A stretch of 64,000 nt of DNA from a virus (IMGVR_UViG_2799112923_000001), one strand, 5' to 3'; counted from the first letter of the stretch, positions 55,763 through 61,613 are shown. A program made the numbers and translations. The notes: generated from the sequence alone by a model not told the origin.

Positions 55763-56971
55763 ATGGATATTGCAACTCTCAAATCAGTACTCGCAGCAAC
55801 TCCTTCCACTCACACCATTATGTTGAAGGGCCCTCATGGTATCGGTAAGACCGAAGTCATTCGTTGGCTCGCAAAGAATGTATGGCATCAGGATTGTGTG
55901 GAATTCCAGGCATCCCAGATCTCCGACGTGGGTGACTTGATTGGTCTGCCACGCATCAATTCCGAAACCGGTGAAACCGAGTTCGTTCCTCCATATTGGT
56001 ATAAGAAGGACGAAAATGGTAATCCACTTCCCGTCACTCTTTTCCTTGACGAAATCAACCGTGGTACTACCCTCGTCACCAATGCTATGATGCAGCTTGG
56101 CCTTGACCATCGCATTTTGAATTTCAAGCTGGCTCCAGGTTCGCACGTCATTTGTGCTATCAATCCGGGTGACGATGGCAATTATGATGTTGAAGAATTT
56201 GACCCGGCAAAGATGGACCGTTTCGTGGTCTATAACTTTACCCCAACTGTTCAGGAATGGCTTGATTGGGCTACTGAGTCTGGCGTGAACTCCGTTGTAA
56301 CTGGCTACATCTCCCAGTACTCCGGCGACCTTGACCCATACTCCAATGCCGCAGCTAGTAAGACTGCTAGCAAGAGCTTTGATGGTATTCTTCCATCCCG
56401 CCGTACGTGGACTCATTTCGCTGCGTTCCTTGATATGGCATCCGAAAAGGGATTGTTTGATGGCAATAAGGGTTTGGGTATTCTCCAGGAATCTTGTGCC
56501 GGTTATGTGGGGCAGGCTATCGCAGCCAAATTCAAGACCTACTATGCTCAGCATGGTACTGGTATGGATGCTAAGGCTCTAATGGAATCCAAGAACTTTG
56601 AAAAGGATTTCGGAAAGAAGGTAGAAGGTCTTTGTAAGAAATCCAAGATTGAAGCGGTCCAGTTGGGTCAGTCTGTCTGCCAGTATCTCCATGAACAGGA
56701 AGGCAAGATGGGCACTCCTGATAATCCAACGGAATTGGCTCACAAGTATGCTGACAATTTCTACTATTTCTTGACTCACCTGCAGAAAGAAATTCAGGTA
56801 GAAGTTTACACCAACGCAGTCGCTACGGCTCGTGAACGCAAGCAGAAGTGGACTAAACTCATTGGAAAATCTTGCACCATCAAGGTGAAGGACGAAAAGA
56901 GCGGCGAACAGGTTAATGCTCTCAATGCTCTCTACATTTCCATTGTTCGTATTCAGAACGAATTTAACTAA
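55763..56971 (+). CDS. MoxR-type AAA+ ATPase
   Basis: GPHGIGKT (Walker A), LFLDEINR (Walker B), DPAKMDRF, PSRRTW. Confidence 0.9.
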   Translation: MDIATLKSVLAATPSTHTIMLKGPHGIGKTEVIRWLAKNVWHQDCVEFQASQISDVGDLIGLPRINSETGETEFVPPYWYKKDENGNPLPVTLFLDEINRGTTLVTNAMMQLGLDHRILNFKLAPGSHVICAINPGDDGNYDVEEFDPAKMDRFVVYNFTPTVQEWLDWATESGVNSVVTGYISQYSGDLDPYSNAAASKTASKSFDGILPSRRTWTHFAAFLDMASEKGLFDGNKGLGILQESCAGYVGQAIAAKFKTYYAQHGTGMDAKALMESKNFEKDFGKKVEGLCKKSKIEAVQLGQSVCQYLHEQEGKMGTPDNPTELAHKYADNFYYFLTHLQKEIQVEVYTNAVATARERKQKWTKLIGKSCTIKVKDEKSGEQVNALNALYISIVRIQNEFN

Positions 56972-56987
56972 TTTCTTTATGGTGGTT

Positions 56988-57027
56988 GAGGGTGGTTTTC
57001 TCTCAAATGGGAAAACCACCTTTTTTC
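56988..57027 (+). terminator. Intrinsic terminator
   Basis: GGTGGTTTTC...GAAAACCACC followed by a T run. Confidence 0.75.
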
Positions 57028-57075
57028 TTCCAAAACTTCGCAGTGACGAAGTAAGAATTAGTTAAATCGTTCTTT

Positions 57076-57131
57076 TGTTAATTTTATTTTACATAACTTG
57101 GGTTGACAACAATTAACAATTTTACTAAATT
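57076..57131 (+). promoter_or_regulatory. Early promoter with palindromic box variant
   Basis: TGTTAA-N6-TTTACA 57076-57093, TTGACA 57103, TAAATT 57126. Confidence 0.8.
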
Positions 57132-57173
57132 ATCGTTAGATTGATAAACAATGCTATATAAGAGGTACAAATT

Positions 57174-58691
57174 ATGGCAAATTCTATTACTCAAACTACC
57201 AATGAAGTCATTGGTCTAACCAAACAAGAACTGGCGGAATTTTACAAGTCCGACAAGCAGGCGTATGATAACGCCTGGAATGAATGTAACTCAATGAGTG
57301 AACAACTCATTACATCAGCCGTAAAGTTGCTCCAATTTGAGCCGGCTATTCTCACATATTTTGGTTTGTGCGATTTGAAGCCTGTTCGTGACCCGGAGGT
57401 AACTCTCCGTCTTAATTGCCGTGGCACTGGTTCCGCTATCAATATGGAATACAACCCAATTTGGCTGAACAAGATTGAAGAATGCTCTATTCTTGCTTAC
57501 ATTATGTTTAGTGAATGTTTGCGTATCGCACTTCACCACATTACTACCCGTAAATGCTATCCCATTGAAATTTTCAAGAAGGCTAGTGATTACATTTCGT
57601 TTGCTGATAACCAGCGTTCTATTCTCAATACCCATAAGCCCGAAGTAACTCAAATGCTCCAGGAATTTCCTAGCAAGGCAAAATTCCGTCAAGAAACATC
57701 CAAAATCAAGTTTGACGAAGAACAGCATTGGTTCTTGGAAAAGGTTTTCTCTATGTTGATGGAAGTTGCCCAGTCGCAGCCACAATCCGGTAGTGGTCAA
57801 GGTCAAGGTGGACAAGGCCAGGGACAGGGACAAGGCCAAGGTAGCGGAAATGGTCAGGGTCAGGGTCAAGGACAGAATGGACAAGGTAATGGTGGTAATG
57901 GAAACCAAAACGGAAATGGTGGTGGTTCCGGTGGCAACCAACAGAAGAAGGGCGGAAGTGGTAATAATACCAAGGACGCCATCGGCGACTATTTTGACAA
58001 TTCCAAACAGGGTGCGGAAAAGGCAACAGAAGGTTGGGAAGAAAATACTCTCGTTGACCAGGAAATCCAGGAAATCACTCACCACATTGCTGAGAATGGT
58101 TCAACATGGGGTAACATTAGTGGTGGTTTGCTCCAGGCAATTCTTGCTGCTAATACTCCAAAATTTGACCCAAAGACGGTGCTAAAGAGATTCAAGGCCA
58201 ACACAGTTGATAAGTATACAGAAGATACTCGTATGCGACCAGATCGTAGAAAGGGATTTGATGTTCCAGGTAAGAAACACAAATATCGTTCTCGCATTTT
58301 GGTGGCTATTGACTGCTCCGGCTCTATGGCCGACGATGATGTTGAACGTGGTTGTGCCATTGTGAACAAATTCGTAAAACACGCTGATGTATCTTATTGC
58401 TTCTGGGATGGTGTTTGTGGTCCTTTCACCGAACAGAAACAAAAGAAAAACGAATTTAAGCTGATCGGTCGTGGCTGCACCAACCCGGAATGTGTGTTGG
58501 AAGCAATCAAGGAACGCAAGGCCAAATTTGATGGTATCATCTATTTCACCGATATGGGATTTGATTTCCCTCGTCCTGAACACATGGCGAACAAAATCTT
58601 TATGATTAGCACTCCTGGTACTGAATCATATATTCCTGAATGGGTGAAGTATCATCTTACCACCGAACAACTCTTCTCCATTGAAGAATAA
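57174..58691 (+). CDS. Metallopeptidase-like/VWA domain protein (AAA partner) with GQ-rich linker
   Basis: VAIDCSGSM MIDAS, GRGCT, IIYFTD; HExxH replaced by SECLR. Confidence 0.85.
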   Translation: MANSITQTTNEVIGLTKQELAEFYKSDKQAYDNAWNECNSMSEQLITSAVKLLQFEPAILTYFGLCDLKPVRDPEVTLRLNCRGTGSAINMEYNPIWLNKIEECSILAYIMFSECLRIALHHITTRKCYPIEIFKKASDYISFADNQRSILNTHKPEVTQMLQEFPSKAKFRQETSKIKFDEEQHWFLEKVFSMLMEVAQSQPQSGSGQGQGGQGQGQGQGQGSGNGQGQGQGQNGQGNGGNGNQNGNGGGSGGNQQKKGGSGNNTKDAIGDYFDNSKQGAEKATEGWEENTLVDQEIQEITHHIAENGSTWGNISGGLLQAILAANTPKFDPKTVLKRFKANTVDKYTEDTRMRPDRRKGFDVPGKKHKYRSRILVAIDCSGSMADDDVERGCAIVNKFVKHADVSYCFWDGVCGPFTEQKQKKNEFKLIGRGCTNPECVLEAIKERKAKFDGIIYFTDMGFDFPRPEHMANKIFMISTPGTESYIPEWVKYHLTTEQLFSIEE

Positions 58692-59413: not shown

Positions 59414-59493
59414 AGTTCTCGTTGATTGGTTGAGTAATCAAGAAACAAATTTTGAAAAATAAAAATTATACATACAATATAGGAAAACAGAAA

Positions 59494-59625
59494 ATGATGT
59501 CTATTAAGAATCTACATAACATTTGCTCCGAACGAGATTGGCTCCGCGTCAATGCCAATTCAATGCAGGGTGCATTTGCAGGCATCGCCTTTATTGAATG
59601 TGGAGAGGGATTATATAGTCCGTAG
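59494..59625 (+). CDS. Putative 43-aa attenuator leader peptide
   Basis: AGGA RBS at 59481; MMSIKNLHNICSERDWLRVNANSMQGAFAGIAFIECGEGLYSP*; stop codon overlaps the antiterminator arm. Confidence 0.75.
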   Translation: MMSIKNLHNICSERDWLRVNANSMQGAFAGIAFIECGEGLYSP

Positions 59626-59689
59626 ATTTTATTTGTTTTTCCGGCGTAACAAATTAAATCCATTGGACTAAAATCCAATGGATTTTTTT
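59616..59689 (+). promoter_or_regulatory. Attenuator: mutually exclusive antiterminator (59616-59637:59648-59670) and terminator (59656-59667:59674-59685 + U run)
   Basis: TAGTCCGTAGATTTTATTTGTT is near-complementary to AACAAATTAAATCCATTGGACTA; perfect 12-bp stem AAATCCATTGGA/TCCAATGGATTT. Confidence 0.8.
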
Positions 59690-59700
59690 ATTACTCTTTT

Positions 59701-59737
59701 GCTGGTAAGCCAGTAGTGGAGAAACCACTTAAAAAAC
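59701..59737 (+). ncRNA. Double-hairpin RNA element, copy 1
   Basis: GCTGG-TAAG-CCAGT AGTGG-AGAAA-CCACT TAAAAAAC. Confidence 0.65.
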
Positions 59738-59744
59738 AAATTAT

Positions 59745-59819
59745 GGCCCTATCGTCTAGTTTTGGTTAGGACACAAGAATTTCACTCTTGAAACACCAGT
59801 TCAAATCTGGTTGGGGCTA
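59745..59819 (+). tRNA. tRNA-Glu(TTC)
   Basis: CAAGA-atTTCac-TCTTG anticodon arm; TTCAAAT T-loop. Confidence 0.9.
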
Positions 59820-59834
59820 CTAACAAACTAATAT

Positions 59835-59907
59835 GGTACTGTAGAATACTTGGTTAGTTCGCTGCCCTTTCAAGGCGGAAAAGAGAGTTCAAATCTCTCC
59901 AGTACTA
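59835..59907 (+). tRNA. tRNA-Glu(TTC)
   Basis: CTGCC-ctTTCaa-GGCGG. Confidence 0.9.
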
Positions 59908-59920
59908 CTAACAAATTAAT

Positions 59921-59994
59921 GGGTGTGTGGTGAAGTGGTTTAACACACCGGTCTGTCTAACCGGCATACGCGGGTCCGAATCCCGCCATACTCG
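59921..59994 (+). tRNA. tRNA-Asp(GTC)
   Basis: CCGGT-ctGTCta-ACCGG; G73. Confidence 0.9.
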
Positions 59995-60006
59995 CTAAAA
60001 CATTTT

Positions 60007-60080
60007 GGTTTCGTGGTGAAGTGGTCTAACACATTGGTCTGTCTAACCAACATTCGTGGGTTCAAATCCCACCGGAATCG
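60007..60080 (+). tRNA. tRNA-Asp(GTC)
   Basis: TTGGT-ctGTCta-ACCAA; G73. Confidence 0.9.
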
Positions 60081-60090
60081 TACAAATTAT

Positions 60091-60166
60091 GGGCTTGTAG
60101 TTCAGTCTTTGGTAGAACGCCGCACTTGCACTGCGGAGGTCATGGGTTCAAATCCCTTCAGGTCCA
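60091..60166 (+). tRNA. tRNA-Ala(TGC)
   Basis: CCGCA-ctTGCac-TGCGG; G3:U70. Confidence 0.92.
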
Positions 60167-60181
60167 CTACATACAAATTAT

Positions 60182-60254
60182 TCCACCTTAGATCAGTTGG
60201 TAGATCAGGGCACTGTTAATGCCTTAGTCCCAGGTCCGAGTCCTGGAGGTGGAG
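60182..60254 (+). tRNA. tRNA-Asn(GTT)
   Basis: GGGCA-ctGTTaa-TGCCT; G73. Confidence 0.9.
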
Positions 60255-60268
60255 CGAAAACAAAAAAT

Positions 60269-60305
60269 GGTGGTAATCCACTGGTGCTGGAAGCACCTTA
60301 AAAAC
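60269..60305 (+). ncRNA. Double-hairpin RNA element, copy 2
   Basis: GGTGG-TAAT-CCACT GGTGC-TGGAA-GCACC TTAAAAAC. Confidence 0.65.
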
Positions 60306-60308
60306 TTG

Positions 60309-60382
60309 GCCCTCTAATCCAAATCCAGTGATTGGACCGGACTGAAAATCCGAGAAGCTGCGGGCGGCACGCAGAGTGGGCA
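60309..60382 (+). tRNA. Atypical tRNA-Phe(GAA)
   Basis: CGGA-ctGAAaa-TCCG; T arm CTGCG-GGCGGCA-CGCAG (non-canonical loop). Confidence 0.7.
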
Positions 60383-60394
60383 CGAACAAATTAT

Positions 60395-60467
60395 TCCGGT
60401 ATAACTCAACTGGTAGAGTGTTTCCTTCATACGGAAAAAGTTGTAGGTTCAAATCCTACTACCGGGA
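60395..60467 (+). tRNA. tRNA-Met(CAT) (elongator; Ile2 not excluded)
   Basis: TTTCC-ttCATac-GGAAA. Confidence 0.8.
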
Positions 60468-60479
60468 CTAACAAATTAA

Positions 60480-60555
60480 CTCTCCTTCGCCTAGCTGGTT
60501 TATGGCACCTGTCTTACAAACAGGAACAACCTTGGTTCAAATCCAAGAGGGGAGA
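60480..60555 (+). tRNA. tRNA-Val(TAC)
   Basis: CCTGT-ctTACaa-ACAGG; A73. Confidence 0.85.
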
Positions 60556-60558
60556 TAC

Positions 60559-60629
60559 TGCCCATTGGTGTAATGGTAACACGGCTCGCTCTGACCGAGC
60601 AATCAGTAGTCCGAATCTATTATGGGCAA
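60559..60629 (+). tRNA. tRNA-Gln(CTG)
   Basis: GCTCG-ctCTGac-CGAGC; U1:A72. Confidence 0.88.
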
Positions 60630-60641
60630 CGAACAAATTAT

Positions 60642-60718
60642 CGGCAACTATCTCCTCGCTCTGATAAGGCGTTGAAAGAGTAAATGGTTACATGTAGGTT
60701 CAATCCCTATGTTGCCGA
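60642..60718 (+). tRNA. Atypical tRNA-Ile(GAT)-like RNA with no D arm at the normal position
   Basis: Acceptor CGGCAAC/GTTGCCG, CGCT-ctGATaa-GGCG, normal T arm, long 3' insertion. Confidence 0.7.
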
Positions 60719-60722
60719 CTAT

Positions 60723-60796
60723 CGCCCGGTGACGGAACTGGCATACGTGTCTGCCTTAGAAGCAGAATTTTGAGAGTTCAAATCTCTCCTGGGCGA
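60723..60796 (+). tRNA. tRNA-Leu(TAG), short variable loop
   Basis: TCTGC-ctTAGaa-GCAGA; A73. Confidence 0.88.
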
Positions 60797-60808
60797 CTAA
60801 ACATTTTT

Positions 60809-60893
60809 GGAGGTGTGGCAGAGCGGCTTATTGCGTCGGTCCTGAAAACCGAAGATGGTAAAACATCCGTGGGTTCAAATCCTACCACCTCTT
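60809..60893 (+). tRNA. tRNA-Ser(TGA)
   Basis: TCGGT-ccTGAaa-ACCGA; long variable arm; C33. Confidence 0.85.
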
Positions 60894-60901
60894 CTACTTA
60901 T

Positions 60902-60974
60902 ACTCTCGTAGGCTAACTGGATAAACCACTGGACTACGAATCCGGCATTGAAGGTTCAAATCCTTCCGAGAGTA
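60902..60974 (+). tRNA. tRNA-Arg(ACG)
   Basis: CTGGA-ctACGaa-TCCGG. Confidence 0.92.
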
Positions 60975-60988
60975 CGAACAAATTATTT

Positions 60989-61062
60989 GTGGCTATATCA
61001 TAGTCTGGTTAATGAGCCTGTTTACCAAACAGGTTACCTGGGTTCAAATCCCAGTAGCCACT
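60989..61062 (+). tRNA. tRNA-Gly(ACC)
   Basis: CCTGT-ttACCaa-ACAGG; U73. Confidence 0.82.
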
Positions 61063-61070
61063 TACCAAAT

Positions 61071-61159
61071 GCTTATGTGACCCGAGTCTGGCGAAGGGGG
61101 CGGTCTGCAAAACCGTTGTGTTTACAGCACCATCGTTGGTTCAAATCCAATCATAAGCT
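61071..61159 (+). tRNA. tRNA-Cys(GCA) with long variable arm
   Basis: GCGGT-ctGCAaa-ACCGT; U73. Confidence 0.85.
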
Positions 61160-61163
61160 CTAT

Positions 61164-61234
61164 ATCTCATTGGTGTAACGGCAGCATGGCTGGTTCCAAC
61201 CCAGTTGGTGGGGGTTCAAATCCTTCATGAGGTG
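61164..61234 (+). tRNA. tRNA-Trp(CCA)
   Basis: GCTGG-ttCCAac-CCAGT; G73. Confidence 0.88.
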
Positions 61235-61247
61235 CGAAAGTAAATAA

Positions 61248-61319
61248 GTCCTATTGGTGTAGCTGGAAACATGGCAGTCTTCCAAACTGGTGTCGCGGGT
61301 CCGAACCCCGCATAGGGCT
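61248..61319 (+). tRNA. tRNA-Gly(TCC)
   Basis: CAGT-ctTCCaa-ACTG; U73. Confidence 0.85.
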
Positions 61320-61338
61320 CTACAAACAAACTATCATC

Positions 61339-61412
61339 TCCGTATTAGTGTTAATTGGTTAGCACGCAAGTTTGTGGCACTTGTAGTCTGAGTTCAAATC
61401 TCAGATATGGAA
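61339..61412 (+). tRNA. tRNA-His(GTG)
   Basis: CAAGT-ttGTGgc-ACTTG; lacks encoded G-1/C73. Confidence 0.82.
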
Positions 61413-61415
61413 TAT

Positions 61416-61487
61416 ATCTCCGTATGTCAATGGTTAGACGAGCAGACTCTTAATCTGTGGATCTGGGTCCGAATCCCAGCGGGGGTA
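61416..61487 (+). tRNA. tRNA-Lys(CTT)
   Basis: GCAGA-ctCTTaa-TCTGT. Confidence 0.88.
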
Positions 61488-61501
61488 CGAACAAATTAAA
61501 T

Positions 61502-61574
61502 GGGCTTACATGTTCCTTGGAGGCGAATCTCCCTAGCACGGAGATTGTGATGGGTCCGATTCCCATTAGGTCCA
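61502..61574 (+). tRNA. tRNA-Ala(AGC)
   Basis: TCTCC-ctAGCac-GGAGA; G3:U70; weak D arm. Confidence 0.78.
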
Positions 61575-61583
61575 CGAAATCAT

Positions 61584-61613
61584 AACTGGTAAACTTTTGT
61601 TTACCAGTTTTTT
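61584..61613 (+). terminator. Terminator closing the tRNA operon
   Basis: AACTGGTAAAC-TTTT-GTTTACCAGTT followed by a T run. Confidence 0.85.

Follow-up and report, generated by a model that had tools for sequence, protein, structure and literature searches.

A candidate ribosome-dependent transcription attenuator matched in codons to a phage tRNA operon

Main finding

A short leader ORF in front of a long tRNA array in a T4-like phage draws its codons, almost to its end, from boxes that the array itself reads, and runs into a predicted antiterminator, the alternative fold to an intrinsic terminator. We estimate, at roughly three chances in four, that this locus is a ribosome-dependent transcription attenuator, which would switch on the phage tRNA operon when the tRNAs that the operon can replace run short.

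The phage and its relatives

The window, by which we mean the whole stretch of viral DNA analysed (64,000 nucleotides), was assigned to a T4-like phage by portal and Gp23 matches, and its genes were read with code 11. A 229-kb metagenome scaffold is identical to it across the array region, and near-identical sequence is present in cattle and sheep gut runs. Cultured phages gave only single tRNA matches to the region and nothing wider; viral contigs gave no matches by a terminator-only pattern, the leader query or the upstream-gene query. The loop motif had six matches in bacterial genomes, five of them unrelated and one to a MAG-binned contig of this phage. Searches with a conserved 21-nt motif and at the protein level recovered two clades, A, which is the window's, and B, its sister. 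No third leader clade emerged when 1.8 billion proteins were searched with a profile. In the distant relative L004, the tRNAs lie behind promoters and no leader-terminator arrangement was seen.

Across the whole window the tetranucleotide TCGA is strongly avoided (1 observed vs. 140 expected), as are GCGC, GATC and ACGT, and the T loops of the tRNAs are altered in keeping with this avoidance. Upstream of the operon, at 55763-58691, lie a MoxR-like AAA ATPase and a DUF2201/vWA-type partner that carries a Gln/Gly-rich linker; all relatives have this pair in front of their operon.

The leader and its tRNA array

The features of the locus are collected in Table 1. Leader 1 is a short ORF with a ribosome-binding site, located between promoters and the genes that it would control, and it is conserved in both clades. 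The promoter duplication was the sole outcome of a repeat search at the locus, and no sigma70 match of the same quality exists inside array 1. Downstream, the late-promoter-like box continues with the same bases as the one that precedes the major capsid gene (13926), and a box resembling it also precedes the second leader described below.

Table 1. Coordinates of the two leaders, of tRNA array 1 and of the associated signals. Positions are those of the window unless preceded by L055.
Feature	Position	Strand	Remarks
sigma70-type promoter P1	59269..59297	+	11/12 consensus; upstream of leader 1
sigma70-type promoter P2	59385..59413	+	11/12 consensus
T4 late-promoter-like box	59467..59480	+	one mismatch from TATAAATA; putative function
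AGGA ribosome-binding site	59481..59484	+	9 nt 5' of start codon; clade B has one too
leader ORF 1	59494..59625	+	43 codons; codons 1-39 = 59494-59610
antiterminator hairpin	59608..59676	+	-21.2 kcal/mol, z -4.6; predicted fold
intrinsic terminator	59656..59689	+	12-bp stem and U run; -15.2 kcal/mol, z -5.1
tRNA array 1	59745..61576	+	21 genes, 19 anticodons, 17 amino acids
tRNA-Phe(GAA), atypical	60309..60384	+	non-canonical T loop
tRNA-Ile(GAT), atypical	60641..60719	+	no D arm 5' of anticodon arm; small hairpin at variable position
tRNA-Ala(AGC), last array gene	61502..61576	+	missed at default thresholds; found at lower threshold
hairpin and T run at array end	61584..61609	+	likely operon terminator
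leader ORF 2	L055:11969-12046		25 codons, upstream of cluster 2
leader 2 terminator	L055 12090-12113		alternative pairing present

Standard calls with ARAGORN and Rfam yielded 18 tRNAs in array 1, to which Ala-AGC, Phe-GAA and Ile-GAT are added; the CCA ends are mostly not encoded. These calls agree with the first-pass annotation, made from the sequence alone, in which the array was said to serve the same 17 amino acids that codons 1-40 of the leader encode, two of them through the atypical Phe and Ile genes. Both of these fold with tRNA-like arms, both are called as tRNAs in the near-identical strains L013 and L012, and their counterparts in the relatives L001 and L002 are ordinary genes.

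Several further properties of the operon were observed. Anticodons with A34 occur in Gly-ACC, Ala-AGC, Val-AAC and Ser-ACT (window 60989-61062 and 61502-61576; L055 13949 and 19235), with Gly-GCC replacing Gly-ACC in some clade B strains. In the anticodon loop of both Asp tRNAs (window 59921-60081), position 37 is a T, which is conserved in L001 and L002 and possibly serves nuclease evasion. An atypical CAT tRNA (L001 14310-14380 and clade B) has a short D arm and a non-canonical T loop and is mostly missed by ARAGORN. A double-hairpin element is present in two copies inside the operon (window 59700-59730 and 60269-60298), differing in sequence but sharing an identical A-rich trailer. The motif ACAAA(T/C)TA occurs 28 times in the whole window, with 12 occurrences in the tRNA spacers between 59649 and 61498, one of these in the 3' strand of the antiterminator. 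Finally, the cow-rumen-2 RNA (RF02947) lies closely 3' of array 1 in clade B (L001 14749-14853, L035, L039) and, in this phage, just beyond the window end (L055 814-918), within a longer conserved non-coding stretch.

Codon content of leader 1

A recount confirmed 17 amino acids for codons 1-40 and 32 distinct codons among the 43, so that most tRNAs are sampled once or twice; there is no run, and no high fraction, of a few regulatory codons as in trp or his leaders. The set of 17 is unchanged for any cut of the leader from codon 28 to codon 40. Thr is absent throughout, Tyr appears at codon 41 and Pro at codon 43. Their reported absence from codons 1-40 therefore stands; the accompanying statement that the three lack tRNAs applies to the array, since a second cluster, beyond the window, supplies the phage with these tRNAs. 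Lys and Gln are indeed encoded by AAG and CAG. The CAT anticodon is taken provisionally as Met rather than Ile2; the leader contains ATG and no ATA.

At the level of codons, every one of codons 1-39 lies in a box read by array 1, which serves 42 of the 61 codons when family boxes are read leniently, and all of codons 40-43 (TTA, TAT, AGT, CCG) are unserved. The codon-anticodon match proposed earlier thus holds for boxes up to codon 39; it does not hold under strict wobble for TCT, TCC, CTC and GTC, the last being the only Val codon of the leader, which the U34 tRNAs of the array could read only by four-way wobble.

Among 14,970 windows of 40 codons from other genes, none had the exact amino-acid set, which arose at a frequency of 3e-5 in simulation. 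The probability that codons 2-39 are all served was 2.7e-7 under genome codon usage and 7e-7 under uniform codon use, and the longest run of served codons in 58 other genes was 28. A shuffle of codon positions is a poor null and was not relied upon. The match is hence not common in random windows, and it is stronger in codons than originally claimed.

We find it scarcely credible that the match arose by chance, or from the higher G+C content of the ORF (45% vs. 34%), in front of a hairpin that is a plain terminator. Served codons are richer in G+C and the cut of the leader window was chosen post hoc, but the cut coincides with the edge of the antiterminator, a second leader in the same genome is biased the opposite way, and a plain terminator would cut array 1 off from its only strong promoters. 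The P value for uniform codon use, the position of the cut and the bias of the second leader refute this explanation in part.

It is also very unlikely that the encoded peptide is what acts, either by arresting its ribosome as a nascent chain or as a small protein, with the match in composition as a by-product. Six residues (Met1, Lys5, Cys11, Asp15, Ala29, Gly30) are invariant in the leader peptides of both clades, and about 190 sequence variants are on record; both points would favour such a peptide. Against it, many other positions vary freely, lengths range from 29 to 45 codons, the frame of the tail shifts while the RNA pairing is retained, and the profile search gave no relatives outside these phages. 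Further, with the peptide held fixed, synonymous choice alone favours served boxes (P=3.4e-4).

The predicted RNA switch

The 5' strand of the antiterminator is formed by codons 39-43 of leader 1, the stop codon and the spacer, and its 3' strand takes up the 5' arm and loop of the terminator, so that the two predicted structures are mutually exclusive. The terminator stem contains two compensatory pairs, with both sides changed between clades A and B. For the antiterminator, no such pairs were found in a MAFFT alignment that was out of register; it folds in every variant, including those with a different tail frame. An upstream hairpin, which differs between the clades, forms alongside the terminator; it may be a pause or protector hairpin, of the kind that keeps polymerase and ribosome in step.

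Folding was scanned along the unfinished transcript, with only the RNA 3' of a modelled ribosome free to pair. The antiterminator was lost once the A site reached codon 40 in the window and, for clade B, codon 30; each is the first unserved codon of its leader. The switch point at codon 40 rests on the assumed ribosome footprint and may shift by about one codon either way. The unfinished transcript prefers the antiterminator fold even without a ribosome. Folded to equilibrium, the window's full leader RNA showed no switch, which appeared in truncated transcripts only: the terminator state (-26.9 kcal/mol) is favoured over the antiterminator state (-24.2 kcal/mol) and the terminator has a probability of about 1 at all ribosome positions. 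Since the terminator wins at equilibrium on the full transcript, read-through would have to be kinetic, by co-transcriptional trapping. Contigs from RNA libraries span the leader, the terminator and the first tRNAs in three studies; they possibly derive from DNA and give neither a level nor an end, and we left them out of the evidence.

A second leader as internal control

A second, dispersed tRNA cluster lies outside the window on the same scaffold, about 14.5 kb downstream of array 1. It comprises Lys-TTT, Pro, Asn, Tyr, Val-AAC, Arg-TCT, Gln-TTG, Ile-TAT, Leu-TAA, Gly-TCC, Leu-CAA, Thr, Met and Ser-ACT, and with lenient reading of boxes the two clusters jointly cover all 61 codons. A leader ORF and a terminator precede it, in L055 at about 75.2-75.4 kb in window numbering and also in L053 and L054, and the leader is conserved in clade B. 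It has no obvious ribosome-binding site; starting directly 3' of its late-promoter-like box, it may be leaderless. Three sigma70 promoters are located between its terminator and cluster 2.

The codons of leader 2 include ACA, CAA, AGA, TTG, CCT, AAA, TAT, TAC, TTA, ATA and AGC. Together they reach each of the nine boxes that are read by cluster 2 alone and avoided by leader 1; 26 of 15,735 windows of 24 codons did the same. Leader 1 has 25 codons read only by cluster 1 and 4 read only by cluster 2, leader 2 has 6 and 12, respectively (Fisher p=3.6e-4). This opposite bias within one genome argues against base composition as the source of the match in leader 1 and supports the first reading of the leader as a sensor of its array. 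The first-pass annotation had called leader 1 a pan-tRNA sensor. As sensing would be split over two leaders, the term is better narrowed to the full tRNA set of this one operon.

Leader and array in the relatives

Clade B leaders have 29-45 codons and are 42-45% identical to that of the window. The clade B leader contains 29 consecutive served codons (P about 5e-7, a value that is not independent of that for clade A because of shared ancestry). In clade B strains with a full array, Asn is missing from the served stretch and the Asn tRNA is found in cluster 2 only. The amino-acid sets of leader and array are exactly equal in four of four clade A arrays and in nine clade B arrays. Equality fails in strains that lost tRNAs through ORF insertions or deletions, the leader nearly always keeping more than the array, and an identical leader precedes arrays of 4 to about 11 genes, depending on the strain.

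Some individual losses are mirrored: in L002 the Val codon and the Val tRNA are both missing, and loss of Trp is tracked in L035, L039 and L040. Predictions set beforehand held in three of three cases for Trp loss and in four of five for Val loss, and failed in L033, where Val was expected to be kept; as the arrays concerned had lost many other tRNAs too, the loss predictions lend weak support. Two arrays carry a tRNA for which their leader has no codon, that for Val in L040 and that for His in L046. Among 24 substitutions in clade B variants, 9 lead to Asn, Thr, Pro or Tyr, which is not below the 22% expected. Strict tracking at the level of strains was rejected, as arrays lose genes under an unchanged leader. 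The co-variation expected from the first reading is thus seen between clades (Asn) and in some losses and breaks down between strains: arrays erode faster than leaders, and the match reflects history at the level of clades, with loose tracking below it.

The ORFs inserted in arrays replace Val or Gln tRNAs (L001 13445-14070, L016, L033, L014, L025); the insert in L033 has endonuclease Pfam matches and that in L025 lies directly 3' of the terminator. In L040, L059 and L063, Tyr-GTA occupies the position of an Ile or Arg tRNA, an apparent anticodon switch that the leader does not mirror.

Proposed mechanism

From the attenuator anatomy and the codon match, both seen in the sequence, we infer a ribosome lag, read-through and a trigger. 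With fast decoding, a ribosome at codon 40 or beyond would cover the 5' strand of the antiterminator, the terminator would form and array 1 would stay off. If a sampled tRNA were cleaved, uncharged or depleted, the ribosome would lag within codons 2-39, the antiterminator would form first and array 1 would be transcribed, its new tRNAs relieving the lag in a negative feedback. Unserved codons may be excluded from leader 1 because a stall there would induce the array uselessly; leader 2, before cluster 2, would sample them instead. As single-copy codons stall weakly (PMC1183508), the response per tRNA would be shallow, more in keeping with a broad destruction of tRNAs than with mild starvation. 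The likely trigger, judging from three studies (PMC10264068, PMC11464382, PMC11555353), would be loss of host tRNAs during infection.

The main rival to such a codon-specific attenuator is one that reports a general slowdown or uncoupling of translation, as by ribosome damage or a block of initiation, where the codon match would merely ensure that the leader can still be translated after the array is switched on and would confer no useful specificity. The weak stalling at single codons would suit it, as would the unchanged leaders of strains that lost most of their array, the preference of the unfinished transcript for the antiterminator in the absence of a ribosome and the response of the tRNA array of Anabaena to general translational stress (PMC8421152). 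Yet a sensor of this kind would have no need of two leaders with complementary codons, placed ahead of the tRNAs that match them, or of codons for all families, Trp, Cys and His among them, and we judge it unlikely.

There is also a wider proposal, in which we place as much belief as doubt: the phage would split the whole genetic code between two tRNA operons, each with a codon-matched attenuator of its own, detect which class of host tRNA is destroyed and induce the matching set, as a counter-defence against tRNA-cleaving immunity with a resolution at the level of isoacceptors.

Comparison with known systems

Leader-peptide attenuators of amino-acid operons include the multivalent thrL and the leader of ilvGMEDA. 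In pheST, the pheM leader uses the same principle for one amino acid and the output of a synthetase, on a bacterial chromosome. The T-box riboswitch also chooses between terminator and antiterminator, by binding one uncharged tRNA directly and without an ORF. Like pheM-pheST, leader 1 would apply leader-peptide attenuation to a part of the translation machinery; like the T-box, it would read tRNA status, but through a translated ORF. Rfam gave no T-box match at the locus at the gathering score or at E-values up to 5.

Leader 1 shares with trpL and hisL (PMC1183508) a short translated leader that overlaps an antiterminator competing with an intrinsic terminator, as well as leader codons that correspond to the product of the operon. 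It differs in that amino-acid operon attenuators use codon runs for one to three amino acids, whereas leader 1 covers 17, mostly once each, that it controls tRNA genes, and that a second leader takes the other codons. By its structure, the locus would work like trp, his or ilv attenuation, with tRNA genes as the controlled output and without the codon run.

A long, normally silent tRNA array that is induced by impaired translation is known from the trn operon of Anabaena (PMC8421152, PMC10272220). Its control differs, resting on promoter repeats and the protein repressor TrcR, and the terms attenuation and leader are absent from the text of PMC8421152. In the literature searched, which covered few subscription journals, this was the one regulated tRNA array that we came across, and we found no attenuator for tRNA genes. 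Phage tRNA sets that stand in for destroyed host tRNAs have been proposed or demonstrated (PMC10264068, PMC11464382, PMC11555353); a search within the text of one of these papers found no feedback control of their transcription.

We checked the sequence of phage phiCbK and found an identical layout, with an ORF followed by a terminator and a tRNA block. Its two leaders match their own block in 41 of 44 and 19 of 31 codons, and the other block in 1 of 44 and 6 of 31. Since phiCbK is culturable, the idea is testable now.

The purpose of phage tRNA genes has been open for more than 50 years (PMC10264068). If the proposed mechanism is true, it would be direct evidence that these tRNAs replace depleted host tRNAs and do not merely tune codon bias, and the complementary leaders would amount to a built-in reciprocal control. 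Such leaders could also report which tRNA a defence nuclease cuts. Relative to the known systems, attenuation would be extended from amino-acid supply to tRNA supply, and the locus appears to add breadth, with 17 amino acids in one leader, and a complementary pair of leaders.
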